From contig JAYRIM010000028.1 in assembly GCA_041906785.1 (NCBI GenBank), positions 204,383-268,382 of the forward strand: 64,000 nucleotides of DNA. Reading direction: 5' to 3'. The position numbers and the translations under genes were made by a program. How positions within the stretch are numbered: position 1 is the stretch's first letter; every line of letters begins with the position of its first letter. This DNA is from Candidatus Levyibacteriota bacterium (lineage in GTDB: Bacteria > Patescibacteriota > Microgenomatia > Levybacterales > UBA12049). Shown piece by piece: positions 1,325 through 35,856 of this stretch. Under the pieces are notes generated by a model, which was given only the letters and a program-made list of their open reading frames with translations, was not told the DNA's origin and did no database searches.

Positions 1325-2617
1325 CTAGGATAGAATAGTGCGACGAATATAATTCTTAATGCGGTTTAATTCTTTCATATTGACGTACACCTTTGATAAT
1401 GGCGAACCATATAGTTTTACAGCATCTTTTAGATCAGATTTCAGTATGGTCATACTATCTCTCCAAGAAGTTCCCTGTAGTTCTCGATTCTGGATCATGT
1501 TTTCATATAGTTTTACTAAAGTTACGGCTGTTTCGTGAATAGAATATTTTTCCGCTGTTTTTTGAGCATTTTCACCTAACTTTTTTCTAAGTTGATCGTT
1601 TGCTAATAATTCTTGAACATGTTTCACGAATCCTTCACTCTTTTTTTTAATAAGAAAACCATTAACATTATCTATAACTACTTCCTTAAATACATTGTCA
1701 TAGACAGCCACGACAGGTATAGATGATGCCATTGCCTCCAGTATGACCATGCCTTGTGTTTCTGTTCTTGAGGCGAAAACGAAAATATCAGCATCTGCGT
1801 ATACTTTTGGAATTGAATGATGAGGGATAGGGCCAGTAAAAATAACATTTGTAGAGATCTGTAAATATTTTGCAAGATTTTCTAGATTTTCTTTCTCTGG
1901 ACCTGTTCCTACGATAATAAGATACGCATTTTCATCTTGAGTTACAACATCTTTGAAAGATTTTACAAGAAAATCAACTGATTTTTCTTTTCCAAGTCTG
2001 CATACACAGAGAGCTATCTTTGCCTCTTTAGGAAGAGAATATTTTTTTCGAAGAAAACCTTTCGGTTGTTTTTCAAATCGTTTAAGATCAATTCCGCTAG
2101 GAATTACATAGATGGGTTTTCGAATACCATATGCACGCAATTCATTTTTCACTTTTTGTGTTGGTGCGATTAATGTATCACAGACATTTCCGAAAAGTGT
2201 ACTGGTAAGCTCGATAAATTTAGGTCGAATGACACCTTTTAGAAAGTAATGTGTGTATTTATTCCAGAAAGTATGATAGGTAGCTACATATGGAGTGCCA
2301 TACAGTTTAGCAATTTGCCATCCAAGAAATGTTACAAATCCTCCAGAATGGCCGTGTATAACATCAAAATCATGTCTGATAATCTTCAGAAGTGATCTTT
2401 GGGGAATTTGTATAGCAATTCTAGTTTCCAATTGACTTGTGACGCGTAAAGAAAAAATCCTAATGACGTTTTTTCTATCTTTCGTATTTGGGTATTTAGG
2501 AGCAATAATTATTACCTCGTGACCCAGGCGCTCAAGTTCTTTCGCACAAGATTCGACTGTCGTTGCGACGCCATCAAGACTAGGTGTATAGCTATCTGTA
2601 AAAAATCCGATTTTCAT
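1325..2617 (-). CDS. GT4 (group 1) glycosyltransferase
   Basis: 430 aa. GT-B architecture with the C-terminal E-x7-E donor-binding motif region (GMVILEAMASSIPVVA). N-terminal glycosyltransferase-4-like domain. Confidence 0.8.
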   Translation of the reverse strand: MKIGFFTDSYTPSLDGVATTVESCAKELERLGHEVIIIAPKYPNTKDRKNVIRIFSLRVTSQLETRIAIQIPQRSLLKIIRHDFDVIHGHSGGFVTFLGWQIAKLYGTPYVATYHTFWNKYTHYFLKGVIRPKFIELTSTLFGNVCDTLIAPTQKVKNELRAYGIRKPIYVIPSGIDLKRFEKQPKGFLRKKYSLPKEAKIALCVCRLGKEKSVDFLVKSFKDVVTQDENAYLIIVGTGPEKENLENLAKYLQISTNVIFTGPIPHHSIPKVYADADIFVFASRTETQGMVILEAMASSIPVVAVYDNVFKEVVIDNVNGFLIKKKSEGFVKHVQELLANDQLRKKLGENAQKTAEKYSIHETAVTLVKLYENMIQNRELQGTSWRDSMTILKSDLKDAVKLYGSPLSKVYVNMKELNRIKNYIRRTILS

Positions 2618-3606
2618 AGGAGTTCATTATATTCTCTTAATAATGCATTTGAGATAGTCTGGAAACTGAATTGTTTTGTTAATTCTACGCTTTTTTCTTT
2701 TCTTTTTTTAAAGTATGTTTTATCAGTATAAAGTTTATCGACAAGTTTCGTAAAATCACTGATTGAATTACTAGCGAGATACATATCTCCGTATAATGAC
2801 TTGTACTCTTCATTATTCCGTAAAACAAGCGGTAATCCGCACGCTGCAGCTTCAAGGATAACCATGGAAGCGATTTCCTGATATGAAGGGAAAAGAAAAA
2901 TATCAGCCATGTTATAGAATTGGATCACTTTTTCGTACGAAACAATTCCAGGAAGAATAACATTTTTTGGTCTATTTTCATAGAGGTTTTTCTGTTTTTC
3001 TGTCTGAACATTTAACATTTTAATATCATGACCCCCTAACCAAAGAAAAGTTATATGTGGGAGATTTTGTGCAATCTCTAGGAAATCATAAAATCCTTTT
3101 CGTGGAATGAATTTTCCAACTCCAAGGGCGATAAATGCATTTTCTGAAATTCCAAAGTTCTTTTTCCCTTCGTTTCGTTTTAAACCATCAAAATGAAAAA
3201 CTTTCGTGTTTATTGGGTTAGGAATAACTGCTATTCGCTTTACTCCTATTTGTTTTAACTCTTTTTTTACATGCTCATTGAGCGCTACCACTAGATCTGC
3301 TCGTTTATACGCTATATTAAGATATTTATTTATAGCAGGGGCCACAATATTTGCCCCTTTCCAGCTATTTAGAAAGCTTTCTACGGTTATGTGAGTGCTC
3401 AGGACGGTATTTTTATTAGAAAAGAGTCTATACATGCCAAGCGGTCCGAGAGTGTGGATATGGACGATGTCTGCTTTTTTAGAGGAGTTAATGAGAACTG
3501 TTACTCCACGTTCCTTAAGCATCTCTATATGGGTAAGAAAAGCAGTATGTATTCCACCCCATTTCTCAGGTGCTGAAACAGATTCAGAAATAACATTTAC
3601 GATCAT
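2614..3606 (-). CDS. GT4 (group 1) glycosyltransferase
   Basis: 330 aa, MVILEAAACGLPLV motif. 4-nt overlap with the upstream GT4, suggesting a co-transcribed pair. Confidence 0.8.
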   Translation of the reverse strand: MIVNVISESVSAPEKWGGIHTAFLTHIEMLKERGVTVLINSSKKADIVHIHTLGPLGMYRLFSNKNTVLSTHITVESFLNSWKGANIVAPAINKYLNIAYKRADLVVALNEHVKKELKQIGVKRIAVIPNPINTKVFHFDGLKRNEGKKNFGISENAFIALGVGKFIPRKGFYDFLEIAQNLPHITFLWLGGHDIKMLNVQTEKQKNLYENRPKNVILPGIVSYEKVIQFYNMADIFLFPSYQEIASMVILEAAACGLPLVLRNNEEYKSLYGDMYLASNSISDFTKLVDKLYTDKTYFKKRKEKSVELTKQFSFQTISNALLREYNELL

Positions 3607-3803
3607 AATATGCTTGAGTATTATAATCTATTCACAAAGGTATTTCTATTTCTTATTCCAGATTCAGCTAGATTTATAAAATATATTAGTAAATAGGAGC
3701 TGCAAAATAGCCCTATAATAATTGTTATTTTTTTGGTGCATACATGGTACTACCTACTAAAGCTACAATAAAAAAATGAGTAATGGAAAAGTTACTAAAC
3801 AGT

Positions 3804-3812
3804 TTATCCACA
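3804..3812 (+). promoter_or_regulatory. DnaA box, perfect consensus TTATCCACA
   Basis: Exact 9/9 match to the bacterial DnaA-box consensus. An 8/9 match (CTATTCACA) lies at 3628-3636. Confidence 0.4.
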
Positions 3813-4006
3813 TTTTTTCATTTTTTTAACACTTTAGTAAAATTCTATAAAATGCTTAAAAAATATGAACATACGTTATAACTTGACGATTTATCCCAGA
3901 AAGCCGTCTGTATATTTATAGAACAACGACATCGGAGAGAGAAGGACAGAATGATCAACATATTATGGAGATATTCTTGGTCTTACATAACATAAAAAGG
4001 AAAAAA

Positions 4007-4015
4007 TGTGGATAA
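4007..4015 (-). promoter_or_regulatory. DnaA box, perfect consensus (TGTGGATAA on + strand)
   Basis: Exact reverse-complement of TTATCCACA, about 200 bp from the first box in inverted orientation. Further 8/9 matches lie at 4210-4218 (TTATACAAA) and 4386-4394 (TGTGAGTAA). Confidence 0.4.
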
Positions 4016-4849
4016 ATAAGGCGATTTAGCAGACAAGGTACATAAATGCTAAGGGGTTGGGTAAGGTAGATATTATTGCTATATCAAGCAAATCTGCTAC
4101 TTTAATAAGCCCTTTTGCTAATGATGAGTTATAATTCCGTAAAAATCAATTACCTCTAAAGATTATAGTGAAATTATATCAAAAAGTCAATGATACCAGT
4201 CTAAAAAAATTATACAAATGAAAAAAAGAACAGCTAGAGAAGAAAGATTCTCGGAGAGTCTGACAATTGAATTGTTACCATGTTGTATGTCTATCGATCG
4301 TTCAATTTCTTTTCCCTATATACATCATGGGTTGCTTTACACTGATGTCAGTTATAATAGATCCTTCATACGCTAAAAAGGAAAACTGTGAGTAAGTGAA
4401 GTAGGCTAGTTAAAAGTAATACATATATGTCTATCAGTTGAAAAGGCATTAATACAAAAGTGAAAGTACGAGAAACGGAGAATAAAAAACAGTTAAGTAA
4501 AAGTAGTATAAACCCTATAGTAGAATATCATGCAAGTTGACTTTGATGATTAAAAGCTAGTTATCTGTAATTAAGTGCAATTCTATAAAAAAATCATTGA
4601 ATATTTCTTCTTTTCAACTATATTCTAACTGCATGGGTGGAGGAAGATGAAAGGTATATAAAGCAAAAAAAGGGGTAATTTATAAAGATCATAAAATATG
4701 CTCAATACATATATAGAACAATATTTATGATCATTTAGCCTTGTATGAGTAAAATTATTTATCAATATTGCGCATTCAAGCTTTAGTAGTATTTCAAGTA
4801 TCTTCTAGCATAGATTTGTCAATTAGATTAAAATAGGACGAGTAAAAAA

Positions 4850-6016
4850 ATGAATATTCTTTTTTTAAGTCGCCGATTTTATCCTCAAGTTGGTGGTGTT
4901 GAAAGACATGTCATGAAAATTTCGGAATTGCTAGCCCAGCAGGGCCATAGCATAATAATTATAAGCGAAGGGTTAAAGGATCAAAAAAACACAAGAAAAA
5001 TTGTAGTTAAACAGCAAAGATTAGCAAAGGATAAGAGAGATTCTGCTTTAGCTAAGGAACAGCAAGACCTAACTAAAACAGAAAAAGAAGTACCTCACAA
5101 CCACGTTCAAGATAGTCTATATGCATCAAGGTCAATCGTGATATATAGAATGCCAGAAATAAAAGAAGGAAAACAAAAAAAACTTTTTATTTGGCAATGG
5201 ATGTGGCGATATCGAAACTTAATACTTCAAGCAGATATAGTTCACGCTCATGATGTATTTTTTTGGTATTTACCATTTAGATTCCTATTTTTTCGAAAAC
5301 CGATTTTTACTACCTTTCATGGATATGAAAGTTACCCTATTAAAAAGAAAGCTGTTGTTATAAGAAAAATGTCTGAGATGTTATCAATTGGAAACATCTG
5401 TATTGGTGATTTTATAAGTAAATGGTATGGTACAAAACCTACTTTTGTTTCATATGGTGCTGTAGAAATGCCAGAAAGTAAAAATAAAATATCAAATATA
5501 AAAAAAGAGTCAGCTGTTTTTTTTGGTAGACTTGATGAGCAGACCGGGATTTTAACCTATGTAGAAGCATTTAAAGTGTTGAAAAGAAGAGTGCTTAACT
5601 TTAAGTTACTTGTGATAGGAGATGGAATATATCGAAAGTCAATTTCACGTTTTATTACGATCATACCCTTTCAACAAAATCTTGAAAAATATTTTGAAAA
5701 ATACCATTTCGTATTTGTATCAAGGTATCTATCAATTCTTGAGGCCTTTGCTGCTAAAAAATTAGTCTTTGCAGTATATGATAATCCTCTTAAAGAAGAT
5801 TATTTGAGAATGGCTCCCTTTGCGAGATTTATTATTATTGAAAAGGATCCACAAAAGCTTGCTGAAAAAATTTTATACTATCTGCATAATCCAGATGAAG
5901 AGAAAAAGATAGTTTCAGAAGCTTATAAATGGGTGAAAAAACAATCCTGGGAAGAAATGGTTAGTGTTTATAAAAAGCTTTGGAAAAAAAAGATGAGATT
6001 CAGTATAATTACATAG
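4850..6016 (+). CDS. GT4-like glycosyltransferase with a charged insertion
   Basis: N-terminus MNILFLSRRFYPQVGGVERHV is typical of GT4 N-domains. A roughly 50-aa Lys/Gln/Asp-rich segment (KDQKNTRKIVVKQQRLAKDKRDSALAKEQQDLTKTEKEV...) interrupts the N-domain. Confidence 0.6.
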   Translation: MNILFLSRRFYPQVGGVERHVMKISELLAQQGHSIIIISEGLKDQKNTRKIVVKQQRLAKDKRDSALAKEQQDLTKTEKEVPHNHVQDSLYASRSIVIYRMPEIKEGKQKKLFIWQWMWRYRNLILQADIVHAHDVFFWYLPFRFLFFRKPIFTTFHGYESYPIKKKAVVIRKMSEMLSIGNICIGDFISKWYGTKPTFVSYGAVEMPESKNKISNIKKESAVFFGRLDEQTGILTYVEAFKVLKRRVLNFKLLVIGDGIYRKSISRFITIIPFQQNLEKYFEKYHFVFVSRYLSILEAFAAKKLVFAVYDNPLKEDYLRMAPFARFIIIEKDPQKLAEKILYYLHNPDEEKKIVSEAYKWVKKQSWEEMVSVYKKLWKKKMRFSIIT

Positions 6017-6039
6017 TTGTGAGTTGTGAGTAAAAAGAT

Positions 6040-6876
6040 ATGTCATCAAATAGAGCAAAACTACAGAAAAAAAAATTAGGAGATACGATTTCTCCTGCTG
6101 AAAAATACTTTAGAAGGTACCTTAGTATTGGTCCATTAGGTTTAGCATTGTGGCGTTCAGTTGAAGCAAGACATTTAGCCAAAGTAAAACTAAAGAGACC
6201 GATTCTTGATATAGGTTGTGGCTTTGGAGAATTTGCCCAAGCTTTTGCAGATGAACCGATTGATATGGGTATTGATAATAATAATTGGGATTTGTATATT
6301 GCTTCAAAAACAAATAAATATAAAAATTTGACTCTTGCCGATGCTGCAGATCTTCCATTTCCTGATAATACATTTGCTTCTGCTTTCTCAATAAGTACGT
6401 TTGAACATATTAAAGAAGCAGATAAGGCATTAAAAGAAGCATACAGAGTACTTAAACCAGGAGGAATTCTGTTTTTAACGATAGAAAGTGATGAAGTGGA
6501 AGAAGCTGTTTTCTATACACAATTTCTGAAAAAAATTGGTCTTCCCAAAGTGGCAAAAATTGTCCGACAAAAATATAACACATTATTCCATAGACTCCAT
6601 ATATTACCAAAAAATGAGTGGATACGAAAAGTTGAAAAAGCTGGATTTATAATTGATAAAAGGCAAGATATTATCTCTAAAAAGGTTAATTGGTTATATG
6701 ATATATTCCTCATAACAGCATGGCCTTCGCAAATTGTAAAACTGATAACAGGTAAGCGATCCTCAACTAGACCAAAATTCGTAACTGAGTTTTTTGTAAA
6801 AAAATTTTTAAAATATGTTGAAGAAGAAGAAAAAGAAGGAACAAATTTATTAATTATTGCAAGAAAAAAAACTTAA
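6040..6876 (+). CDS. class I SAM-dependent methyltransferase
   Basis: Motif I ILDIGCGFGEFAQAFAD and post-I LKPGGILFLTIE. Confidence 0.7.
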   Translation: MSSNRAKLQKKKLGDTISPAEKYFRRYLSIGPLGLALWRSVEARHLAKVKLKRPILDIGCGFGEFAQAFADEPIDMGIDNNNWDLYIASKTNKYKNLTLADAADLPFPDNTFASAFSISTFEHIKEADKALKEAYRVLKPGGILFLTIESDEVEEAVFYTQFLKKIGLPKVAKIVRQKYNTLFHRLHILPKNEWIRKVEKAGFIIDKRQDIISKKVNWLYDIFLITAWPSQIVKLITGKRSSTRPKFVTEFFVKKFLKYVEEEEKEGTNLLIIARKKT

Positions 6877-7694
6877 GACCAATTCTCTCCATTAGTACAT
6901 GTTTGTCTTACAAATTGGGTAATTATAGTAAGTCCTTTTCTTAAATCTGCTTTCGTTAATAAAAACAAGCTAATAGGATTTACCTCAATAGTTACGGTAC
7001 CTTCCCAATGGTTTTCATGCAACCAAAGCAATTGCTGTTCTGCGAAGGATGATCTGTGATACAAAATCTGTTTTATTCCTTGTTTTCCAATAAGCGATAA
7101 TTGGATGTTCTTTATCTTGTTTAGTCCAAGCCAACTCCAAAATTCTGTCCAGTCATTAAATCCATTCTCCTTAGCCCATATTAGTGATTGATCATCTCGT
7201 GTGTCTATAGCAATATAATGATGGTCTGAATTCAGCCATGCTTTAATCTTTTCAGGTTTAACAGATGTATCTCCCATTATTTCATAAAGGATGTGGCCAT
7301 ATTCTTTTCCTTCATTATTCAGTAACCATTTATCTGTAAGATTATGTACTGTTACTGGAAGATCGTTATTTTTAATAATAGATGAAATTACCTCTCTTGA
7401 AAAATGATTACTTGGAAAAAATGCGTATCGAATGCTGTTAAAAAATAAACTAGTGAATAAAGGGATGGCATAAAATCTATCTTGGTTAATATCTAATCTC
7501 CAGCTGTGATGAATGCTTTTTATAAAAGGTAAAAATTTGCTCAATTTGTTGTTATCTCTTAGATCTTTTGTGATTCTCCTGGTTGGTAATAACTCTAAAC
7601 CGTCGCATCCCACTTCTGTAGCAAATCGAACTGCTTCTTCTAGTCCATACCATAAAATACAACCACTTGAAAGTAATATTTCATTTTTCTTCAT
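6873..7694 (-). CDS. sugar-phosphate isomerase/epimerase-like TIM-barrel protein (xylose-isomerase-like fold), putative
   Basis: 273 aa. N-terminal ...AVRFATEVGCDGLELLP... resembles the AP-endonuclease-2/xylose-isomerase-like TIM-barrel family. Weak call. Confidence 0.35.
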   Translation of the reverse strand: MKKNEILLSSGCILWYGLEEAVRFATEVGCDGLELLPTRRITKDLRDNNKLSKFLPFIKSIHHSWRLDINQDRFYAIPLFTSLFFNSIRYAFFPSNHFSREVISSIIKNNDLPVTVHNLTDKWLLNNEGKEYGHILYEIMGDTSVKPEKIKAWLNSDHHYIAIDTRDDQSLIWAKENGFNDWTEFWSWLGLNKIKNIQLSLIGKQGIKQILYHRSSFAEQQLLWLHENHWEGTVTIEVNPISLFLLTKADLRKGLTIITQFVRQTCTNGENWS

Positions 7695-9465
7695 ATTTTC
7701 TTATTAATATATTCCCTTGTTTGTTAGCAAATGAAATTAGTATATTAGAAATTATTACTAGTAAAAAAATAATACTTACTGTTTTAAGTAGTTTATATAC
7801 TGCCGGGTTGTTATACTTTACTTCTGTAAAATGTAAGCCTTTTCGTACTGAAAATGATATTACCCCTTCACTATCATGCGAAATAGTGGATTTCTTATTA
7901 TCTATAAAAATGTCCCATCCAGGAAAATATAACGTATTTTCTCTTAGTAAAAGTTCCGTTTCTGCGTTAACAATATACCGATGATTTGTTGAATTTCTAG
8001 TAAATTCTTTTATTTCTCCTTTCCCATTTAAAATCTCAATATGTTTTATTGGAAGTTTTGAAAACCATGGTTTTTTAGGGTCTCTTAGAATAGAATTTGC
8101 ATAATAATGTCCTTCTGATTGTGATGTACTTTTCCAGAGGTTTGTAATGAGATATTGATCATTAATATCGGATATAAGTCTTCTCTGTCCCCAATTTAAA
8201 ATTGTTGTACAAATTGTGATGAATATCAGCAAATATATCATTCTTCTTCTTCCTTTAAAATGTAAAACTAAGTATCCTGAAAGAATAGAGATGATGAATG
8301 TAGATAGAAGCAACAACCGATGTGAGCCTACTGCTTTAAGGAAGGGAACAGCTCCCCAAAAAAATCTTGAAAAAGATGTTGCTAGAAATAGCGATATAAA
8401 TAAAGCTAAGAGGAAAAATACAATTTGCATTCTCATAGATTTTTGGATTTTATTTCTTATTAGTAAAAGAATTATTAATACAGAAATAAAAATATGTGTG
8501 TATCCTAAGAGAAAAGAGATCTGACCCTCTGGCCCTTGAAATAAAAATCCCCAACGCCAGGGAGAATATAATAATTCGAAAATATGAGGTGAATAATAAA
8601 ATTCAGCTACCTTTTTAAATATTGTATATTTCGATAAAAAGAAAGGAGTTGCCCATATATAAGATGTTGCAAAACTACCAATAATAGTTGCGAGTATCGT
8701 GGTAAGTAGCGGAAGTTTTGTTTTTGACTGAAAGGATAGTAAAGTTGCATAAGACAAAAGTAAGGCAAGAGTAAAAAGTGCTATAACTACATGACTCATG
8801 ATAAGTGCAGTAATTGATAGAATTGATAAAGAAAGCCATAATGTATTTTTTTCTTTCCATAATTTATGAAAGGCAAAAAAAGCAAACGGTAATATTGTAA
8901 AAAACAAGATTTCGCCAATAACCACTTTAAAATGTAAATCTATAAGATGATAAGGAGCGAATTGATAAAATATGGCGCTTGTAAAAGCTGCCAAATCATT
9001 ATTGAAAATTTTTTTTGCAAAAAAATACATAAAGATTCCAGATAAAATAAAATTTGAGGCCAAAAAGAGTTTAAGACTCGAAATAAAAGTAAATCCAAGA
9101 GCATGGAAAAAACTGACAAGATAATAAGGAAGCGGATAGTTAAAAATAAAAAGAGGGTAACCATATGTCGCATTTAAATTTCCAGCCCAAGAAGGCAAGA
9201 TGTTACCTTCTTGTAATGAGTTATAGAAATCTATACTTCTATATAAATGAATCATAAAATCTCCACTTTCATAAACACCTTTTCGAAAGATACTTATGCA
9301 GACAATTGAAGAAAGTACAATAAGCAGAAATAATAGATTTATTTTTCGCTTAGGGCATCGAATTTTATAAATGATAATCCCAGCGCTTATAAATAGAAGA
9401 GCAATAAGATTTATAAAAACCATTTTCTGTGGGTCAAGCATATTGCTATAATATACACTGAACAA
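7681..9465 (-). CDS. polytopic membrane protein (about 13 TM, GT-C-like) with C-terminal extracytoplasmic domain
   Basis: 594 aa. The N-terminal roughly 400 aa is almost entirely hydrophobic helices. The C-terminal roughly 180 aa is soluble. Confidence 0.5.
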   Translation of the reverse strand: MFSVYYSNMLDPQKMVFINLIALLFISAGIIIYKIRCPKRKINLLFLLIVLSSIVCISIFRKGVYESGDFMIHLYRSIDFYNSLQEGNILPSWAGNLNATYGYPLFIFNYPLPYYLVSFFHALGFTFISSLKLFLASNFILSGIFMYFFAKKIFNNDLAAFTSAIFYQFAPYHLIDLHFKVVIGEILFFTILPFAFFAFHKLWKEKNTLWLSLSILSITALIMSHVVIALFTLALLLSYATLLSFQSKTKLPLLTTILATIIGSFATSYIWATPFFLSKYTIFKKVAEFYYSPHIFELLYSPWRWGFLFQGPEGQISFLLGYTHIFISVLIILLLIRNKIQKSMRMQIVFFLLALFISLFLATSFSRFFWGAVPFLKAVGSHRLLLLSTFIISILSGYLVLHFKGRRRMIYLLIFITICTTILNWGQRRLISDINDQYLITNLWKSTSQSEGHYYANSILRDPKKPWFSKLPIKHIEILNGKGEIKEFTRNSTNHRYIVNAETELLLRENTLYFPGWDIFIDNKKSTISHDSEGVISFSVRKGLHFTEVKYNNPAVYKLLKTVSIIFLLVIISNILISFANKQGNILIRKYEEK

Positions 9466-25107: not shown

Positions 25108-25878
25108 ATGATTGCGGCTGTAATTCTAACAAGAAACGAAGAGAGTAATATAAAAAATAGTCTTAATTCCGTTTTATGGTGTGATGAAGTAGTCGTTATT
25201 GATGACAATTCTACCGATAAAACTCTCCAGATTATTAAAGAATTTCATTCTCAAAAAATAAAGATCTTTCAAAGGGGTATTCAAGAGGATTTTGCTAGCC
25301 AAAGAAATTATGCTTTAGAAAAGGTTAAGAGTGACTGGGTATTCTTTGTTGATGCGGATGAAATTGTTTCTTCTGCCTTACAATTTGAAATAATAAATAC
25401 AATAAATTCAAATCTAGAGAAAAAGAAAGGCTATCTACTGAGACGAAAAGATTTTATGTGGGGAAAAGCAATTAATCATGGTGAATCAAATAATACGAAA
25501 CTTCTAAGGCTTGGTAGAAAAGATAGCGGAGAATGGGTTGGAAAAGTTCATGAAGAATGGAAGATACAAGGACCAATTGGTGAACTGCAACACGTTTTAA
25601 TACATTACCCCCATAGTACGGTAAAAGAATTTCTTGAGGAAATAAACCACTATACGAACATTCGTGCAATCGAACTCTATACTCTTAATAAAAAGGCAAA
25701 TGTATTATCTCTAGTCTTCTATCCTACCGCTAAATTTATACAGAACTATATTTTTCGCAGAGGTTTTCTTGATGGTACTGCTGGATTAATTTTATCGCTA
25801 ATAATGAGTTTTCATTCTTTTCTTGTGAGAGGAAAATTATGGATGTTATGGCAACAGACAAAAAAAATTAATGAATGA
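25108..25878 (+). CDS. GT2 glycosyltransferase (soluble)
   Basis: MIAAVILTRNEESNIKNSL...VVVIDDNSTDKT...FVDADE (DxD). Confidence 0.75.
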   Translation: MIAAVILTRNEESNIKNSLNSVLWCDEVVVIDDNSTDKTLQIIKEFHSQKIKIFQRGIQEDFASQRNYALEKVKSDWVFFVDADEIVSSALQFEIINTINSNLEKKKGYLLRRKDFMWGKAINHGESNNTKLLRLGRKDSGEWVGKVHEEWKIQGPIGELQHVLIHYPHSTVKEFLEEINHYTNIRAIELYTLNKKANVLSLVFYPTAKFIQNYIFRRGFLDGTAGLILSLIMSFHSFLVRGKLWMLWQQTKKINE

Positions 25879-29368: not shown

Positions 29369-29378
29369 TGATAAACAT

Positions 29379-30575
29379 ATGTCTTTTATCACATTATTTA
29401 TAGTTACAATTATATCCTTTGCTTCAGGAGAAATTGGTCGAATCGATTTTAGGAATGGCGTAGCTATTCATATCTCTGATATTTTACTTTTTATAACTTT
29501 TTTATTCTGGCTATTACGTATTAAAAAAAACTTTAAAGTTTTCTATTTTTTTCTCACAAAACCTCTAATTCTATTTGTTCTATTTTGTATAGTTTCATTA
29601 TTACTAAATCCTCTTTCATTGTCTTTAACTAGTCTATTCCTCTCTTCTCTTTATCTTATCCGATGGATTTTATACTGTTCTATTCTTTTTATAAGCAGAA
29701 CTTTTACTCTAGAAGAACGAAAGAAAATCTTTCAAACCTTATTGATAACTGGTTTATCGTTAGTTTTATTCGGATACATCCAATATTTTTTTTATCCAAA
29801 CCTTCGTAATCTTTATTATCTTGGATGGGATGATCATTTATATCGATTGTTTTCGACATTACTTGATCCAAATTTTACGGCAACAATTTTAAGTTTTCTA
29901 TTATTTATGTTACTTACTTTATTGATATCTAGTAAGAAGCGTAGATTACTATATTTAATATGTTTTATAATTTCTTTTATAGCATTATTGTTGACATATT
30001 CAAGAAGCGGGTATGTGATGTTCATTGTTGGAAGCGTTATAAACTTATGGCTATTAAGAAAAAGAAAATTAATATTTCTGTTATTCGTAGTGTTGATGTT
30101 TGGTATTGTAGTGTTGCCTAAAGATCTAGGGAGTGCTGGCGTTGAGCTATGGCGGACTCAATCGATAATAGCGAGGTCTATGGATGCCCAACAAGCAATC
30201 ACTATATTTCTAGATAATCCTATCTTAGGGGTCGGGTTTAATACGTATCGTTATGCACAAAAAGAATATGGTTTTTCAAATCATAGAAATTGGCAAGTAA
30301 GTCATTCAGACGCCGGGACTGATAATAGCTGGTTGTTTGTTTTAGTAACTACAGGGGTAGTTGGATTTATATTATATATATTGTTATGGTGGAGAATTAT
30401 TTATATGACATATAGAGTTTATAAAACGAATAAGTCAGATAGTTTTGAGAAAACGGTAGCTATCATACTGCTTTCTTCAATAGCAGGACTTTTCATTAAT
30501 GCTTTCTTTATTAATAGCCTTTTTTACCCAATGGTAATGTTATGGATGTGGGTTTTAATAGGATTATGGGATTAA
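29379..30575 (+). CDS. O-antigen ligase / Wzy-like polymerase family membrane protein
   Basis: 398 aa, about 10 TM. Central periplasmic-loop region with YSRSGYVMF. Confidence 0.6.
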   Translation: MSFITLFIVTIISFASGEIGRIDFRNGVAIHISDILLFITFLFWLLRIKKNFKVFYFFLTKPLILFVLFCIVSLLLNPLSLSLTSLFLSSLYLIRWILYCSILFISRTFTLEERKKIFQTLLITGLSLVLFGYIQYFFYPNLRNLYYLGWDDHLYRLFSTLLDPNFTATILSFLLFMLLTLLISSKKRRLLYLICFIISFIALLLTYSRSGYVMFIVGSVINLWLLRKRKLIFLLFVVLMFGIVVLPKDLGSAGVELWRTQSIIARSMDAQQAITIFLDNPILGVGFNTYRYAQKEYGFSNHRNWQVSHSDAGTDNSWLFVLVTTGVVGFILYILLWWRIIYMTYRVYKTNKSDSFEKTVAIILLSSIAGLFINAFFINSLFYPMVMLWMWVLIGLWD

Positions 30576-31609
30576 TACGTTTCATATTAGCTATAAGTGT
30601 ATACTTATCTCATGTTCAGAGGCATTTTAATGTATCCTTGTTTGGTTTACAATTAGTTGGTGGAGAGGTTGCGGTAGTGTCTTTTTTTATTATCTCAGGT
30701 TTTTATATATCATTGATTTTAAACGAAAAATATATTGATAAAAATGACTCTTTCTTTTTATATATTTCGAATCGCTTTTTAAGAATTTATCCCTTGTACT
30801 GGTTAATCCTGGTTCTGTCTTTTACATACTTTATTACAATTCGTGACAAGATATTTGAGTATATACTTATCTTCCCAAGTACTTTCATCAATGTGCTACA
30901 TCTCTTGCAAAGCATATTCCAAAATTTATTTCTTTTTACTTCTATCAGTTACTTTATTCATATTCCTTATATGTATACGCGATTTATTGTAGAACCTGCA
31001 TGGAGTTTGGGAGTTGAGTTAATATTTTATATCCTTGCACCTTTTCTTGTAAAAGGTGGGATAAGAAAGACGTTTTTTATACTAATTTTTTCATTACTAC
31101 TTCGTATATACGTTACTCATATTAATATATTTTATCCTGTATATAGCTTGCCTTTTCTTTTTCTCCCAAACTTATATTTTTTTATGCTTGGGGCTATGTC
31201 TTTTCAAATATTTAAAAAAATTAAAAAACCTTTAAATTCTAAACTATATTATAGTCTGACAATAGTTGTTTTAATATATATATTACTTTATAACTTCATT
31301 CCAATTTTGTTTTTCTCTACTTTCAAGCGTCATATTCTTTATATTCTTATTTTTATATGCACGCCTTTTTTATTTATCATTGATACGAAAATTAAATACT
31401 TTTTTTTCTTAGGGGAGTTATCTTATCCTATTTATCTCTCTCATTTTCTTACTTTACTTGTCATTAACCATATCTCATTTCTTTCATTAAAAAACAGCTG
31501 GAGTGTTTTAGCTGCTACATTTATTGTATTTTTTATTTCTTATTTGTTAAAAAAATATGTTGCTGATCCTATAAATATATACCGTATAAATAGGATAAAA
31601 AGAAAATGA
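30542..31609 (+). CDS. acyltransferase family 3 (OafA/YrhL-like) membrane protein
   Basis: N-terminal GLIRFILAISVYLSHV and VSFFIISGFYIS match AT3 motifs. The real start is probably the Met at 30566, since the track start overlaps the upstream gene by 34 nt. Confidence 0.55.
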   Translation: MDVGFNRIMGLIRFILAISVYLSHVQRHFNVSLFGLQLVGGEVAVVSFFIISGFYISLILNEKYIDKNDSFFLYISNRFLRIYPLYWLILVLSFTYFITIRDKIFEYILIFPSTFINVLHLLQSIFQNLFLFTSISYFIHIPYMYTRFIVEPAWSLGVELIFYILAPFLVKGGIRKTFFILIFSLLLRIYVTHINIFYPVYSLPFLFLPNLYFFMLGAMSFQIFKKIKKPLNSKLYYSLTIVVLIYILLYNFIPILFFSTFKRHILYILIFICTPFLFIIDTKIKYFFFLGELSYPIYLSHFLTLLVINHISFLSLKNSWSVLAATFIVFFISYLLKKYVADPINIYRINRIKRK

Positions 31610-31682: not shown

Positions 31683-32870
31683 ATGTCACATATTAAATTA
31701 ATTGCAAATTTACTGTTGATTGTTTTTTTTATTATTGTTTCCTCTTATTTTTACTATGGAATGAGGATAAAAAAAGCATACAGCGAAGATTACAATGTTC
31801 CAATAGCAGAAACAATTATCTCAGGAAATTTTCTAACTATTCATTCTGACATAACCCCTTTTTTATATTTTCCAGGCTCTTCTCATTTTATTTTAGTACC
31901 ATTTGTCCTATTAGGATTTCCTAACCTTTTTGGTTTATTGAGTTTCATATTGTTATTTTTAGCATGCAAGAAACTCGGGGAGGTATTTGGTCTTAATAAA
32001 TATATGTCAATAATATTTGCAGCCGGTTTTTGTTCGACTATGTCTGTTGTTAGAACTATAGGGGATCAAAGTATTGATAAGTGGTTATGTTTTTGGTTTA
32101 TTCTAAGTTTGATACTACTTGAAAAGCCACAAAAAAACTTTAAATACTCATTACTTATTGGTTTTTCGTTTGGGATGCTAATTGGTACAAAATATTCAGG
32201 TCCGCTCTTCTTTTTGGCATTATTACCTTTATATTTGAAAACACTTTCGACGTACTTGAACCCGGTACGTTTTTTCCTTGCCAGTATTGTTTTCACAATT
32301 ACTGGGTTGTTTTGGTATATACGGAATTTTATTTTAGAAGGAAACCCAATGTATCCTGCAAATTTGCCCTTTTTTAAAGGTTGGCCTAATTATACTCAGC
32401 AGGACTGGATGTTATGGAGGATTCCTTTTAATTATCCGAGAAACTTGATTGATGTTTTTAATGCTTTTTTATCTGAATATACTATCTGGGCAACTTCAGG
32501 CTTATTAATTGTTTGGTTTGTAATAACTTCTAATCGCAAAAGACGGGTAATTGAAAGTAAGACGCTACGAATTATCTATTTGATTATTAGTACTGCTTTT
32601 GTATCTTTTATGCTTCCAGTAATACCCCCTTATAAAGAGGTATTATCTGTCACGATCTCAAACATGCGATATATTTATATTTTGGTAATTTTAATGATGT
32701 TAGCAGTTTTTCTTATAGTAGATAGGTATAAAAAGAATTCTCTTCTTGCTTCTGTTGTATTAATAAATGCTATTCCTTCCTTTTCATACATTCCATATCA
32801 GCCAAAAATATTAATATTTTGTATTTTGTTAATGATAATGGTGTATTCGAAACGGAAGTGGTTATTATAA
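31683..32870 (+). CDS. polytopic membrane protein (about 11 TM), unknown
   Basis: 395 aa, almost entirely hydrophobic helices. Location in the glycosylation locus. Confidence 0.4.
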   Translation: MSHIKLIANLLLIVFFIIVSSYFYYGMRIKKAYSEDYNVPIAETIISGNFLTIHSDITPFLYFPGSSHFILVPFVLLGFPNLFGLLSFILLFLACKKLGEVFGLNKYMSIIFAAGFCSTMSVVRTIGDQSIDKWLCFWFILSLILLEKPQKNFKYSLLIGFSFGMLIGTKYSGPLFFLALLPLYLKTLSTYLNPVRFFLASIVFTITGLFWYIRNFILEGNPMYPANLPFFKGWPNYTQQDWMLWRIPFNYPRNLIDVFNAFLSEYTIWATSGLLIVWFVITSNRKRRVIESKTLRIIYLIISTAFVSFMLPVIPPYKEVLSVTISNMRYIYILVILMMLAVFLIVDRYKKNSLLASVVLINAIPSFSYIPYQPKILIFCILLMIMVYSKRKWLL

Positions 32871-32957: not shown

Positions 32958-34835
32958 ATGTGTAATAAGCAAGGTTTTATTACTACGTTATTTCTGGCGT
33001 TGTTGTTTATAATTATTTACTTTCTTTTACCGCCCATAACTACTGCAAGCGTTTCTTTTGTTGATGGATTCAGTGGGAATAATACAACCCTTCAACAATA
33101 TAATAGTAACTATCAAAGTTGGGAAGGGCAAATCTACGTAGATGAAGATCATGCTTATACTAATGATGGTTTTGGGGCATTTGCTATCTATACCGGCTTT
33201 AGTCAGACTAATAATTGTACCTCTATAGATTTTCGTTCTGACGGTTGGGTAAGTATACTTTTACGAACTAAATTCAATTTTTTGCAGACCGATAGAATCG
33301 ATCTCATAGATGGATCTTGGTGGCGGTATTTTCATAATAGTAATAGCGTTACAGAAATGGGTAATCTTTCATCAGGACTTACCTTTGACAGATTCAGTCC
33401 TACTATTCATACACTCAAAGCTTGTGCAAGTGGAACAACTTTGACAGCATACATAGATAATCAACAATTTTGGACTGGACAATCTACAAATACTGGTGGC
33501 TATTCAGGTTTTGGAGCCTACGAGCCTACTTCATATCTTGATAACTTCAAAATAGAAACAATTTTAAGTGGATTGGAGGTTCCTTATTTCAGCCAAAATG
33601 CTAATCCGTGGGGACCAAGTGAATATGATCATACTATTGCATTAGGAGCGACTGCAATGGATGCTACCATGGATAGATGGGGCTGTGCGGTGACTTCGGC
33701 AGCGATGATTCTCAGATATCACGGCATGGATGAGATAAGTAATGGGACACCACTTGATCCTGGAAGTCTAAATAATTGGTTAAAAAATAATAAAGGTTAT
33801 TTAACAGGTAAAACGAAAGATGGTTGGTATTCTTATCTTAGTTGGCCTTCTATAAGCAAATTAACTAAACAGTTATATGATATAGGAAAATCAAATACAA
33901 AACTTGAATACAAAAGAGCTCCCCAGTCACAAATGACTGACTTGCTTAATAATGATTTGCAAAATGATATCCCCGCAATCGTACATGTAACTTCCCGCAC
34001 AGGTTTCAATGGCTCAATTGGACATTTTGTTGTAGCAACGGGAGTACAAAATAATACCCATATCATAAATGATCCAGAATGGAACTACTCCACGTTGGCA
34101 AGTTTTAATAATTATTTTGATCAAGTTGATCGATATATTCCATCAAATACAAATCTCTCTTATATCAATCTTGTTGTGAATCCAGAGGTGGAAATACTGG
34201 TCACTGATGACCAAGGAAGAAAAACAGGAAAAATTATAAAAGATGGACAAACACAAACTTTTAGTCAAATTCCTGATGCAATATATGGGTATGAATCTTC
34301 TATAGATAATCCGGATCCATTATCTCTTTTGCAGAGATTCGGCACTGGTGTACATTCATTTCTACTTCCGAAGCCGGAAAATGGAACTTATACATTTACT
34401 ATTTCCGGAGGTGATGTAAAAGATTTTGCCTTGAACGTGGCTTTATTTGAAAGTGATGGCGATGACACACTTACACCACTTCATGGGTATGTAGGCCAAT
34501 ATTCTGAAGAATCATTTCAAGTTTCCTTTGATCAATCAAACCTTGCAGAAGTTACAAGACAAGTGAATTTCGATAGTTTGATAAATGATACTTATCAAGA
34601 TGTTTATCAACAAAGAGAGAGTAATGGGATTTCTAGAGATAATATCTCAAATCATTTACTTCGATTGCTTACTCAAACAGCAAAAGAGTACCGGCTGGGT
34701 AGGTATGATCATGTAAATCGTAAGCTTGATCAATTTGAGGATCTTCTCAATCGGGAAAAAGGGAATTGGATTACAGAAGACGCTTACCAAGGATTAATGG
34801 AGGATTTAACAGCTTTGAGAGCTCAGATTCAGTAG
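32958..34835 (+). CDS. secreted/anchored protein with lectin-like (jelly-roll) domain and C39-like papain-fold peptidase domain
   Basis: N-terminal signal/anchor (FITTLFLALLFIIIYFLL). Central WGCAVTSAAMILRYHG (Cys) ... IGHFVVATG (His) matches the Peptidase_C39_2 catalytic dyad pattern. Confidence 0.5.
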   Translation: MCNKQGFITTLFLALLFIIIYFLLPPITTASVSFVDGFSGNNTTLQQYNSNYQSWEGQIYVDEDHAYTNDGFGAFAIYTGFSQTNNCTSIDFRSDGWVSILLRTKFNFLQTDRIDLIDGSWWRYFHNSNSVTEMGNLSSGLTFDRFSPTIHTLKACASGTTLTAYIDNQQFWTGQSTNTGGYSGFGAYEPTSYLDNFKIETILSGLEVPYFSQNANPWGPSEYDHTIALGATAMDATMDRWGCAVTSAAMILRYHGMDEISNGTPLDPGSLNNWLKNNKGYLTGKTKDGWYSYLSWPSISKLTKQLYDIGKSNTKLEYKRAPQSQMTDLLNNDLQNDIPAIVHVTSRTGFNGSIGHFVVATGVQNNTHIINDPEWNYSTLASFNNYFDQVDRYIPSNTNLSYINLVVNPEVEILVTDDQGRKTGKIIKDGQTQTFSQIPDAIYGYESSIDNPDPLSLLQRFGTGVHSFLLPKPENGTYTFTISGGDVKDFALNVALFESDGDDTLTPLHGYVGQYSEESFQVSFDQSNLAEVTRQVNFDSLINDTYQDVYQQRESNGISRDNISNHLLRLLTQTAKEYRLGRYDHVNRKLDQFEDLLNREKGNWITEDAYQGLMEDLTALRAQIQ

Positions 34836-34875
34836 TTTAATCTTCTTTTAGATGCTTAATCTCAAACACAATATA

Positions 34876-35030
34876 GGGGCCGGTTTCGTATACTTTTTGT
34901 TGTTGTTGTATCAAAGTAGCTTTTTGTTGGTAATGGGATCTCTCCCTGGTTGGTCCTACCCTTGTCAAGCTCGCCTCGTAGCGAAGCAGGCAAGCGAGTT
35001 CACCCCAAGTCGGTCTCCGCTGGATCAGGA
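34876..35030 (+). ncRNA. candidate structured ncRNA in a G+C-rich island (possibly SRP-RNA-like); strand uncertain
   Basis: Between two convergent gene ends. Locally much higher G+C than surroundings. Long imperfect helix (CUUG...GUCAAGCUCGC / GCGAGUUCAC...CAAG). Contains GAAGCAGGCAAGCGAG resembling the SRP RNA helix-8 string GAAGCAGCCAAGGCAG, but no clean GNRA apical loop. Confidence 0.3.
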
Positions 35031-35043
35031 TAAAATATTCATT

Positions 35044-35856
35044 TTAAGGTGAATAATTCACTTTTATTTCTTTTTCAGTTTTATTGCCAGCTTCATCAAT
35101 CGCAACAACTTTTATAGTATTATCACCATCTTTCAAAGCAAGAGTATATGAAAAACTACCGTTTGTTTTCGTTACAGCGATAAAATCATTTACTCTTACT
35201 GATGCGCCTTCTGCTGTTTTTCCTCTCACTACTATAGTTCTACTGTTATTTCCTGAATATCTATCTCCCTCGCTCGGCTCATCAACAGTTAACTCAGGTG
35301 GTTCTTTCAAATATGATATTTGTTCAATATTTGAGAAATTACTTTTTTGTTTTTCTAAAACTACCTGAGCCTTGAGTTCGTTTTTTCCTTCTTTTAAAGT
35401 AACGTCTTTAAAGGAAAAAGAACTTTTCTTAATATCTGCTACATCTGCTAAATTATCATTTACATACAGACGAATTTTTCCTTCCTTTTGCCCTGAGATT
35501 TGTCCTGAAACAACGATAGTAGCACTATTCGTTGCTTTTGGCAGAGGATCAAGGACAGGAGGTGCAATGTAAAGCATGGTATCAGATGTTTTTTGAGAAT
35601 CACTATTTGTATTCGCTTTACTTAATAGCAGACTAAATTGGATAACAGCATTTGGTCCCCAAATTAAAAGTCCACAAATAATAACAATAATGCCGAAAAC
35701 AGTTAGAATAAGACTTCTTTTCGATTGGGTTTCTAATCTTCGCTTCATTCGGGACTTAGACATAGCTTCATTATTGCTATTTTCTTTCGGGGTTTCAAGA
35801 GAGCTTTCCTCCTCTAACATATCTGGTATTTCATCAACTTGAGTTTTCTTTTTCAT
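35044..35856 (-). CDS. membrane-anchored surface protein with Ig-like beta-sandwich repeats
   Basis: 270 aa. Charged N-terminus, one TM (LILTVFGIIVIICGLLIW), then Thr/Ser/Val-rich repeats typical of bacterial Ig-like domains. Confidence 0.45.
   Translation of the reverse strand: MKKKTQVDEIPDMLEEESSLETPKENSNNEAMSKSRMKRRLETQSKRSLILTVFGIIVIICGLLIWGPNAVIQFSLLLSKANTNSDSQKTSDTMLYIAPPVLDPLPKATNSATIVVSGQISGQKEGKIRLYVNDNLADVADIKKSSFSFKDVTLKEGKNELKAQVVLEKQKSNFSNIEQISYLKEPPELTVDEPSEGDRYSGNNSRTIVVRGKTAEGASVRVNDFIAVTKTNGSFSYTLALKDGDNTIKVVAIDEAGNKTEKEIKVNYSP

Follow-up and report, generated by a model that had tools for sequence, protein, structure and literature searches.

Three GT2::GT-C fusion proteins in a large glycosylation locus of a Levybacteria-like genome

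Gene content of the locus

Our study identified, in a window comprising the whole 64,000-nucleotide stretch of DNA analysed, a gene cluster of about 31 kb from a Patescibacteria (Levybacteria-like) genome, in which ORF calls and Pfam searches recover a gene set for cell-surface glycans. These results support its classification as a large lipid-carrier-type glycosylation locus, and the density of glycan genes here, together with the synteny conserved in other genomes, excludes a chance occurrence. Profile searches confirm all the gene classes listed in the first-pass annotation: four GT4 enzymes, two soluble GT2 enzymes, three fusion proteins (FusA, FusB, and FusC), four stand-alone polytopic proteins, a Wzx flippase, a Wzy_C protein, an AT3 acyltransferase, three SDRs, methyltransferases, and a DUF2304/GT2 pair. 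In what follows, counts of related loci correspond to homologues located near FusA homologues in other genomes, and the strand is given after the coordinates.

The cluster begins with two GT4 genes, whose products have 430 aa (1325-2617, minus; Glycos_transf_1 151.8 bits, Glyco_transf_4 115.9 bits), seldom syntenic with FusA loci, and 330 aa (2614-3606, minus; Glycos_transf_1 64.8 bits); they are followed by 1.24 kb without ORFs (3607-4849). The other two GT4 proteins belong to the conserved core: one of 388 aa (4850-6016, plus; Glyco_transf_4 46.4 bits, Glycos_transf_1 44.4 bits), with a homologue less than 10 kb from FusA homologues in 34 loci, and one of 363 aa (15054-16145, plus; Glycos_transf_1 86.7 bits), found in 50 related loci. 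The SDRs comprise a nucleotide-sugar epimerase/dehydratase (13194-14120, minus; Epimerase 192 bits, GalE-like 170 bits, under the cut-off), a nucleotide-sugar dehydratase/epimerase (14179-15057, plus; Epimerase 137 bits, with LegB-like and dTDP-glucose 4,6-dehydratase-like matches), and a 4,6-dehydratase-like protein (19258-20283, plus; GDP_Man_Dehyd 157.6 bits, dTDP-glucose 4,6-dehydratase-like 144 bits, under the cut-off). In addition, there are two SAM-dependent methyltransferases (6040-6876, plus, Methyltransf_11 69.8 bits, in 14 related loci; and 16142-16975, plus, Methyltransf_11 85.6 bits) and a zinc-ribbon NDP-sugar C-methyltransferase-like protein (20300-21511, minus; Methyltransf_14 148 bits, Methyltransf_13 37 bits), which is present in 49 related loci with a median identity of 63%. 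A 273-aa protein (6873-7694, minus) has no family match in Pfam or NCBIfam, and its homologues hold the equivalent position in four related loci.

The Wzx/MOP-family flippase (21598-22824, plus; Polysacc_synt_3 229.5 bits, MOP flippase 178 bits) is part of the conserved core, with counterparts in 61 related loci. The soluble GT2 of 256 aa (25108-25878, plus; Glycos_transf_2 74.2 bits) is encoded by a gene that shares 8 nt with the beginning of the polytopic gene behind it; it occurs in 33 related loci, where the usual next gene encodes a homologue of the 560-aa or the 583-aa polytopic protein. Further downstream lie the Wzy_C protein of the O-antigen ligase/polymerase family (29379-30575, plus; 66.9 bits, cut-off 31.7), with weak matches to RfaL and O-glycosylation ligases, and the AT3 membrane acyltransferase (30542-31609, plus; Acyl_transf_3 69.5 bits). 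The second soluble GT2, of 222 aa (12499-13167, minus), resembles polyprenyl-phosphate HexNAc synthases of the PpgS/GacI type in NCBIfam (a full-length match to PpgS with E 2e-40, which stays under the equivalog cut-off; AglJ, 1e-29; ArnC, 1e-20), and directly downstream of it is the gene of a GacJ/Rv3632-like DUF2304 small membrane protein (12137-12496, minus; 47.1 bits). There is precedent for such pairs in GacI/GacJ and PpgS/Rv3632 (10.1101/180810, PMC10821137): GacJ is a DUF2304 member that stimulates GacI, and Rv3632 stimulates PpgS (10.1101/180810).

The four stand-alone polytopic proteins resemble GT-C enzymes to different degrees. The 594-aa protein (7681-9465, minus) is GT-C-like (PTPS_related 32.7 bits, cut-off 26.4, and a weak PMT_2 match), carries the first-loop motif ESGDFMIH, and is divergently transcribed from FusA, of which it is a conserved neighbour in 45 loci. 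The 560-aa protein (27686-29368, plus; 25 related loci) is weakly PMT_2-like, with 23.2 bits, under the cut-off of 26.1. The GT-C class of the 583-aa protein (25871-27622, plus) is not established: it has no Pfam match even at E<=10, its hhalign match to the FusC family is weak (E 2.7e-4, probability 42%), and its first-loop motif is EYGDSLL. The 395-aa protein (31683-32870, plus) is unclassified: Pfam gives no match even at E<=10, and hhalign does not relate it to the FusC family.

Two membrane-anchored proteins are adjacent to the cluster, and their membership is uncertain: a C39-like peptidase with FIMAH (32958-34835, plus; Peptidase_C39_2 46.6 bits, FIMAH 37.3 bits), with homologues near FusA in five loci, and an Ig-like surface protein with a single N-terminal transmembrane segment (35044-35856, minus; Glucodextran_B 65.7 bits, Big_13 29.7 bits). 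Neither is a glycosylation enzyme. It is important to note that an initiating phosphoglycosyl transferase, a GtrA-type flippase, a chain-length regulator, and an LCP ligase are all absent from the locus, which leaves the pathway incomplete on the evidence of the window. MurT/GatD, encoded in the window, suggests that the envelope is peptidoglycan-based.

The three fusion proteins

Special attention was given to the proteins in which an N-terminal GT2 module is joined to a C-terminal polytopic module. FusA (855 aa; 9479-12046, plus) consists of a GT2 with membrane helices (residues 1 to ~315) and a PMT-like GT-C module (~320-855). Its N-module matches Glyco_transf_21 and Glyco_trans_2_3 in Pfam, as well as TarS, TarP, RmlT, and WrtF in sequence searches and Foldseek, and its helices carry the invariant polar residues R228, R237, K274, Q292, and D296; judged by its sequence, this GT2 is a membrane-embedded domain resembling hyaluronan or cellulose synthase, not one of the DPM1/GtrB type. 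FusB (749 aa; 16986-19235, minus) joins a GT2 (1 to ~245) to a GT-C module (PMT_2, ~262-749), domain end to domain start, by a clean 18-residue linker. The FusB GT2 is the only one of the three that classifies with DPM1/ArnC/GtrB, that is, with polyprenyl-phosphate sugar synthases, according to phmmer against the PDB (DPMS 1.6e-12, ArnC 1.5e-10, GtrB 6.7e-10) and NCBIfam (AglJ, ArnC, PgfS). FusC (753 aa; 22828-25089, plus), whose gene directly follows Wzx in an operon-like run, has a WbbL/ppGalNAc-T-like GT2 (1 to ~235; Glycos_transf_2 71.5 bits) and a GT-C module (PMT_2). Its GT2 is nearest to ppGalNAc-T, RmlT, WrtF, chondroitin synthase, and rhamnosyltransferases rather than DPM1/GtrB; ppGalNAc-T2, RmlT, and WrtF are also the best Foldseek matches of its model (AF2; pLDDT 92.2, pTM 0.87). 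The first-pass annotation had described all three GT2 modules as DPM1/GtrB-like, which holds for FusB and fails for FusA and FusC.

Its assignment of the C-terminal domains to GT-C was confirmed by profile evidence. PMT_2 scores are above the cut-off of 26.1 in FusB (28.5 bits) and FusC (39.5 bits), and FusA itself is under the Pfam cut-offs of both PF02366 and PMT_2; the FusA and FusB families each match the FusC family with an hhalign probability of 99.6%, in the case of FusB over both modules, and the FusC family profile matches PIG-M (E 9e-4). The loop after the first GT-C helix conserves an acidic residue in all three families: D357-E358 is invariant in the FusA family, every aligned relative of FusB retains the Asp of PDSIDY, and column 299 of the FusC alignment, which holds at least 56-57 full-length homologues among the matches listed, is always acidic (E in 48 and D in 9 of 57 sequences), with H325 and W327 also invariant. 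On these grounds (PMT_2, hhalign, and the first-loop acids) we classify all three C-modules as GT-C.

Lys and Arg are scarce in this same loop (1 of 61 residues in FusC, 2 of 33 in FusA) and abundant on the GT2 side; by GT-C precedent and the positive-inside rule, the GT2 and GT-C active sites are predicted to lie on opposite sides of the membrane. The structure models (pTM 0.86 and 0.87, the latter that of FusC) indicate that the two modules are confidently packed as one predicted unit.

Conservation of the fusions

FusA and FusC were shown to be old, conserved families, and the fused arrangement is common in the Levybacteria-like lineage. Among species-representative genomes we found 51 full-length fused FusA homologues, mostly in Ca. 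Levybacteria, and 10 genomes that encode the two halves separately, at a distance of 1.7-9 kb. A threshold of E<=1e-5 yields 782 FusC homologues; of the 120 listed, the majority show the GT2 and PMT_2 architecture and align to at least 89% of the query. For FusB we found no close full-length orthologue; the nearest relatives of its halves are stand-alone proteins of ~500 aa and ~240 aa, and in one related locus (L001) they are neighbouring genes (GT-C half 58% and GT2 half 37% identical). More distant fusions of a DPM1-like GT2 to a polytopic domain also occur (P0007, a complete internal ORF, P0278, P0308, P0355, and P0382). Separate halves in other genomes constitute Rosetta-stone-type evidence that those of FusA and FusB belong together. 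Across Levybacteria, synteny is kept by a core in which FusA, FusC, and Wzx are joined by two of the GT4s, one GT2, and two GT-C-like proteins that stand alone; the variable part consists of FusB and the GacI/GacJ-like pair, along with the SDRs, methyltransferases, AT3, and remaining polytopic proteins.

These results support the three fusions as real and GT2::GT-C as their correct description. In agreement with the first-pass annotation, which knew of no characterised example, we found neither a description of this architecture in the literature nor a PDB chain that matches both modules.

Proposed pathway and alternative explanations

We consider that the region probably encodes a polyprenyl-phosphate-carrier pathway for a surface glycan, to which we assign a probability of about 0.6; the product may be a glycopolymer of the wall, O-glycans on proteins, or a combination of the two. 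The SDRs and the C-methyltransferase would produce a modified nucleotide sugar, probably deoxy and C-methyl-branched, and the GT2 and GT4 enzymes would build lipid-linked sugars on the cytoplasmic side of the membrane. Among these, polyprenyl-monophosphate sugars would come from the FusB N-module and from the 222-aa GT2 acting with its DUF2304 partner, as they do from GacI/GacJ, PpgS, ArnC, and GtrB; Wzx, and possibly further scramblases, would carry lipid-linked sugars to the outer leaflet, where polymerisation, transfer, or decoration of the glycan would fall to the Wzy_C protein and the seven modules of GT-C type, with O-acylation by AT3 as the last step. The fusion would hold together a cytoplasmic GT2 and the outward-facing GT-C cognate to it, in the manner of the separate pairs SccN/SccM, SccP/SccQ, and ArnC/ArnT. 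Most likely, FusB is a donor synthase and donor user in one polypeptide. The earlier proposal that all three fusions make a lipid-linked sugar inside and transfer it outside is thus well-founded only for FusB; it is unproven for FusA and FusC, because their GT2 modules are not DPM1/GtrB-like.

For these two proteins, a possible though doubtful alternative is that the modules act at different steps, the GT2 elongating a lipid-linked oligosaccharide or glycosylating some other membrane acceptor inside the cell and the GT-C later polymerising or transferring the flipped glycan, so that the fusion serves only anchoring and complex assembly. The relatives of the FusC GT2 (WbbL, rhamnosyltransferases, ppGalNAc-T, RmlT, and WrtF) use glycan, polymer, or peptide acceptors, the FusA GT2 matches and the position of FusC after Wzx point in the same direction, and in lactococci a C55-P-linked oligosaccharide is the substrate that GT-C enzymes polymerise and transfer (PMC10821137). 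However, FusB, homologous over both modules, has a genuine polyprenyl-phosphate synthase-type GT2, the retention of the fusion in the FusA and FusC families suggests a coupling tighter than anchoring, and the invariant polar residues in the FusA N-module helices fit a lipid acceptor.

It is improbable that FusA is instead a synthase-type enzyme, whose GT2 polymerises processively and whose GT-C either forms or lengthens the path across the membrane or modifies the chain as it emerges: in NCBIfam, the alignments with PgaC, HpnI, and HpnB do run into the membrane helices, and the two Pfam matches of the N-module agree with it, but the QxxRW position is degenerate (M213-F-F-R216-F217) and about three membrane helices are too few for a synthase channel. 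Finally, there is very little probability that the fusions arose as artefacts of assembly or sequencing that joined adjacent genes: the stand-alone relatives of the FusB halves and the lack of a close full-length FusB orthologue would fit this, but the many full-length homologues exclude it for FusA (51 independent genomes) and FusC, and for FusB the identical 749-aa sequence in NCBI and Logan, the distant fused relatives, and the clean junction make it unlikely.

Comparison with known systems

Protein O-mannosyltransferases of GT39 (yeast Pmt1/2/4, actinobacterial Pmt with Ppm1) differ from FusA, which falls under the PF02366 and PMT_2 cut-offs, lacks a MIR domain, and is fused to a GT2. FusA also departs from PcManGT, a minimal cellulose-synthase-like membrane GT2, and from hyaluronan synthase in its degenerate QxxRW, its few membrane helices, and the complete GT-C domain that follows its GT2 module. 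The GacI/GacJ/GacK/GacL system of S. pyogenes and the lactococcal WpsA/WpsB/WpsG/WpsH/WpsJ system share with the locus a GT2 and DUF2304 pair, Wzx, and many GT-C-like proteins; unlike them, the locus shows neither rhamnan backbone genes nor an ABC exporter or an LCP ligase, and its seven GT-C-type modules and its fusions have no counterpart there, the sole fusions described for those systems being GacJ::GacI, not GT2::GT-C (10.1101/180810, PMC10821137).

In the three-component systems (GtrB/GtrA/GtrC, ArnC/ArnT, CsbB/GtcA/YfhO, SccN/SccM, and SccP/SccQ), a cytoplasmic GT2 makes a polyprenyl-phosphate sugar that a GT-C uses outside, and in S. mutans the GT-A/GT-C pairs are cognate (PMC11754754). 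The locus differs from these systems in having no GtrA/GtcA-type flippase and in the GT2 modules of two of its three fusions, which belong to other subtypes. FusB is like them in both modules, the N-module matching ArnC, GtrB, and DPMS and the C-module being PMT_2, whereas the locus has the two enzymes in one polypeptide.

Fusions of GT2 and polytopic modules

Three proteins encoded in the window join an N-terminal GT2 module to a large polytopic C-terminal module: FusA (9479-12046, 855 aa), FusB (16986-19235, 749 aa) and FusC (22828-25089, 753 aa). That they are real proteins, as the first-pass annotation had held, is borne out by full-length fused homologues of FusA and FusC and, in the case of FusB, by records in two databases and distant fused relatives. 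The 120 listed matches of FusA are all 836-883 aa long and 42-48% identical to it, with a query cover of 100% except for five at 96-99%. When each species was represented by a single genome, the scan yielded 79 FusA loci, with no match above 47% identity among the species representatives. The protein is fused in 51 of them, whereas 10 have an N-module on its own (GT2 with its helices in the membrane, 42-55% identity) at a distance of 1.7-9 kb from an equally separate C-module, and 16 have only the C-module within the fetched stretch. Genomes with informative names are mostly Candidatus Levybacteria/Levyibacteriota; Patescibacteria, Amesbacteria, Beckwithbacteria and Paceibacterota are the other labels. 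FusC has 782 matches at E<=1e-5; most of the 120 listed cover at least 89% of the query with a GT2 and PMT_2 architecture, 56 of the 120 align over the full length, and there are also stand-alone versions, about 490 aa long. An assembly artefact, in which separate genes were joined by error, is rejected for FusA and FusC by these many fused homologues.

In the case of FusB, 1.84 billion cluster representatives were searched exhaustively, and the nearest relatives of its two halves proved to be separate proteins of about 500 aa and about 240 aa. In a related locus (L001) a homologue of its GT-C module (58% identity) adjoins a GT2 of 230 aa whose identity to the FusB N-module is 37%. Distant DPM1-like GT2::polytopic fusions are also found: long proteins with this make-up account for about 20 of the top 150 clusters, several of them aligning well into the membrane module and keeping a first-loop Asp, and one is encoded by a complete ORF internal to its contig. 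NCBI and Logan each contain the FusB sequence, and these two records, the distant fused relatives and the complete internal ORF make an artefact unlikely here too. In L001, a metagenomic contig, the two genes (5228-7411) are convergent with overlapping 3' ends, and an SDR and a UDP-glucose/GDP-mannose dehydrogenase adjoin them.

C-terminal modules

Several lines of evidence identify the C-terminal modules of all three fusions as predicted GT-C domains, in agreement with the first-pass annotation. First, FusB (28.5 bits) and FusC (39.5 bits) pass the gathering score of the Pfam model PMT_2 (26.1). The FusA C-module alone reaches 17.1 bits, below this cut-off, and the window protein has no PF02366 match; its homologues carry PF13231 and many of them also PF02366. 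Second, profile-profile comparison with hhalign links the FusA and FusC families (probability 99.6%, E 7e-25, 598 columns) and the FusB and FusC families (probability 99.6%, E 4e-24), and this relatedness among the three families spans both modules. Third, an acid in the first loop, just past the first GT-C helix, is kept in each family. In the FusA family Y354, M356, D357, E358, W359 and H360 are invariant in 51 sequences; in the FusC family position 299 is E in 48 of 57 sequences and D in the other 9, and H325 and W327 are invariant; in FusB the Asp of 'PDSIDY' is present in every aligned relative. Profile searches of PDB sequences barely detect these modules, the matches being PIG-M for the FusC family (E 9e-4) and PMT for the FusB family (E 0.5). 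The list recorded for the FusA C-module, with two unlabelled figures per entry, comprises Pmt4 (23.7; 375), Pmt2 (23.3; 378), ALG12 (22.0; 391), ArnT (19.4; 346), STT3B (18.9; 378), ALG9 (18.9; 407), AglB (17.8; 375), PIG-M (17.6; 292), AftB (17.0; 368) and PglB (16.6; 364).

The loop that bears the acid is low in Lys/Arg and the GT2 side is high in them. This distribution, together with the precedent of known GT-C enzymes, fits a geometry in which the GT2 module would lie inside and the catalytic loop outside.

N-terminal modules

The GT2 modules of all three fusions had been described as DPM1/GtrB-like, a description that holds for FusB only, since other GT2 subtypes match FusA and FusC best. 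Residues 7-235 of FusB match DPMS (E 1.6e-12), ArnC (1.5e-10) and GtrB (6.7e-10) among PDB sequences, and AglJ, ArnC and PgfS in NCBIfam; by these matches, its N-module is of the polyprenyl-phosphate sugar synthase type. Full-length likeness to DPMS/ArnC/GtrB/PpgS is found in this module and in the 222-aa soluble GT2 (12499-13167), and in neither the FusA nor the FusC GT2. The GT2 of FusC most resembles ppGalNAc-T2, RmlT, WrtF and chondroitin synthase and also matches rhamnosyltransferase and GlfT1 models; the match of its family profile to DPMS is restricted to the N-terminal ~115 positions. The FusA N-module differs from the HAS/BcsA/PgaC synthases, which possess a QxxRW motif where FusA has M213-F-F-R216-F217, and a multi-helix translocation channel where FusA has approximately three membrane helices before its GT-C module; in overall fold, though, hyaluronan synthase is its nearest match.

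The 222-aa GT2 is PpgS-like (NCBIfam, E 2e-40), and a small DUF2304 membrane protein (12137-12496, 47.1 bits) is encoded 2 nt downstream of it. This is the same arrangement as in GacI/GacJ and PpgS/Rv3632; the definition of the family is taken from 10.1101/180810.

Content and borders of the glycan locus

Glycan-biosynthesis genes are packed between positions 1325 and 32870. Their left border (47-1275) consists of metK (47-1177) and, directly upstream of it, a SAM-I/IV riboswitch (1171-1275(-), 52.4 bits with a gathering score of 41.1). A tRNA-Thr(CGU) gene (35872-35946(-)) marks the right edge and is followed by ATP synthase genes. The G+C content is about 28-34% in the glycan run compared with 35-39% in the flanks; this lower value and the tRNA gene at the edge suggest a variable, island-like surface-glycan region.

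All of the gene classes named in the first-pass annotation were recovered in our Pfam and NCBIfam scans: four GT4 and two soluble GT2 enzymes, three SDR epimerase/dehydratases, two SAM methyltransferases, a Methyltransf_13/14 C-methyltransferase, an AT3 acyltransferase, a Wzx/MOP flippase (229 bits, Pfam), a Wzy_C protein (66.9 bits, Pfam), four stand-alone polytopic proteins, the DUF2304 protein next to the 222-aa GT2 and the three fusions. For two of the polytopic proteins, of 583 aa (25871-27622) and 395 aa (31683-32870), nothing decisive came from Pfam at E<=10, NCBIfam, hhalign to the FusC family or pairwise BLASTP. The locus had been extended to position 35856, and the last two genes of that span turn out not to encode glycosylation enzymes; they encode a C39-like/FIMAH protein and an Ig-like surface protein. 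The former (32958-34835(+), 625 aa) is membrane-anchored, with a C39-like peptidase domain and a C-terminal FIMAH domain, and in five related genomes (L007, L026, L031 and L033 among them) homologues of it (28-46% identity) precede the core locus on its upstream side.

The locus contains no initiating phosphoglycosyl transferase, GtrA-type flippase, chain-length regulator or LCP ligase: neither a WecA-/WbaP-type transferase nor a Wzz-type protein is present among the locus proteins scanned with Pfam, and the ORFs between 1 and 38 kb that are 90 aa or longer include no small GtrA/GtcA-type flippase, Wzx/MOP being the sole flippase there. A GtrA/GtcA-type flippase could be encoded elsewhere in the genome.

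Between two divergent GT4 genes lies a 1.24 kb AT-rich stretch (3607-4849, 28.6% G+C) that holds no ORF longer than 52 aa, which is unusual for an otherwise tightly packed genome; it has no Rfam match at E<=1, no blastn or tblastx similarity to 80 related loci and none to the remainder of the window. A 273-aa soluble protein (6873-7694(-)) has no Pfam or NCBIfam match, and its homologues (46-51% identity) stand between the methyltransferase and the gene of a 594-aa polytopic protein in four related loci (L006, L009 and L025 among them). The remainder of the window is housekeeping (dnaE, gatAB, murT/gatD, pyrG, pyk). Its MurT/GatD-type pair (51803-53973(-)), a Mur ligase with a MurT_C domain and a CobB/CobQ-like amidotransferase, suggests that this organism has an amidated Gram-positive-type peptidoglycan.

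A conserved core in related genomes

We compared the locus proteins with 80 fetched loci by tblastn, counting as homologues those matches that cover at least half of the query. Wzx has a homologue in 61 of the 80 loci, the GT4 starting at 15054 in 50, the C-methyltransferase in 49, the 594-aa polytopic protein (7681-9465) in 45, the GT4 starting at 4850 in 34, the 256-aa GT2 (25108-25878) in 33, FusC in 32 and the 560-aa polytopic protein (27686-29368) in 25. The recurrent order begins with GT4, (methyltransferase) and the 594-aa gene, which faces FusA from the opposite strand; a variable cassette follows, and then Wzx, GT4, FusC, the 256-aa GT2, the 560-aa protein and (Wzy). Few of these loci have FusB, DUF2304, AT3 or the proteins of 583 aa and 395 aa. 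This rarity and the recurrent order point to a core that is conserved and a decoration set that is strain-specific, an organization typical of surface-glycan loci. As the core is syntenic across Levybacteria, the locus likely encodes a major surface glycan of these bacteria.

About 40 related loci keep the divergent pairing of the 594-aa gene and FusA. The TTG start that was called mechanically for the former in the window is only 13 nt from the ATG of FusA, and the true start is probably a downstream Met codon, at residue 9 or 15. In the window, the 583-aa gene begins 8 nt inside the end of the 256-aa GT2 gene; these two may constitute an unfused GT2/polytopic pairing like that of the fusions, if the 583-aa protein is a GT-C at all.

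Discussion

In the known template, the polyprenyl-phosphate sugar is the product of a cytoplasmic GT2, crosses the membrane by means of a flippase and is transferred outside by a GT-C, with cognate GT-A/GT-C pairs such as SccN with SccM and SccP with SccQ (PMC11754754). By analogy, the locus would assemble and decorate a surface glycan by a carrier pathway, with sugars that are possibly C-methylated, O-methylated and O-acylated, and the fusions would tie each inner partner to its cognate outer partner within a single polypeptide. In FusB, the predicted donor synthase and the predicted donor user are most likely one protein. For FusA and FusC there are two readings: the GT2 module may produce a lipid-linked donor that has gone unrecognised, or its role may come earlier in this pathway, at a step in the cytoplasm. 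The acceptor could be a protein, to which the PMT-like DE motif of FusA points, or a wall polymer, to which the Wzx/Wzy_C context points.

A stronger reading would make the fusions self-contained transmembrane machines, in which the sugar-lipid is made inside, crosses without a separate flippase and is used outside. The predicted packing of the two modules is confident (pTM 0.86 and 0.87), and this packing, the long conservation of the fusion and the absence of a GtrA-type gene from the locus all fit such a flippase-free mechanism, while none demonstrates it; we give it roughly one chance in eight. If true, such machines would speak to the question of which flippases or scramblases serve polyprenyl-phosphate sugars, which are still unidentified in S. 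mutans, for example (PMC11754754).

Natural fusions can serve as Rosetta stones for which cytoplasmic GT2 pairs with which outward-facing GT-C, a matter that otherwise needs genetics, pair by pair, as for SccN/SccM and SccP/SccQ. FusB would represent a compact one-protein ArnC/ArnT-type system, and could suit structural and biochemical study of coupled donor synthesis, membrane crossing and transfer. The stable coupling of non-DPMS-like GT2 modules to GT-C modules implies either an unrecognised lipid-sugar synthase activity or another kind of coupling.

The first-pass annotation knew of no characterised example of this architecture, and we also found no description of natural GT2::GT-C fusions or of Patescibacteria GT-C systems in the literature searched, nor a structure of such a fusion in PDB sequence searches; where the retrieved papers use the word 'fused', they mean cloning or fusions of GacJ::GacI. 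Because the fusions are abundant in public metagenomic protein sets, where they already bear generic 'glycosyltransferase' annotations, the architecture is uncharacterised rather than unseen. To our knowledge, Patescibacteria are almost wholly uncultured and their cell envelopes essentially uncharacterised.

The known three- and four-component glycosylation systems have the same components and logic as this locus. The three-component Gtr/Arn/Csb systems, however, possess a dedicated small GtrA/GtcA-type flippase that the locus lacks. Of the components of a Wzx/Wzy pathway, Wzx and a Wzy_C protein are present, and the scanned locus proteins include no initiating transferase and no Wzz-type protein. 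Of the marks of GT39 protein O-mannosyltransferases, the loop-1 DE pair is invariant in the FusA family and PF02366 occurs in many FusA homologues, with no match to it in FusA of the window. Four features set the locus apart from the known glycosylation systems: the covalent GT2::GT-C architecture; its presence in three paralogous forms in a single locus; the coupling of non-DPMS-like GT2 modules to GT-C modules; and the concentration of seven GT-C-type modules and a Wzy_C protein in about 25 kb.
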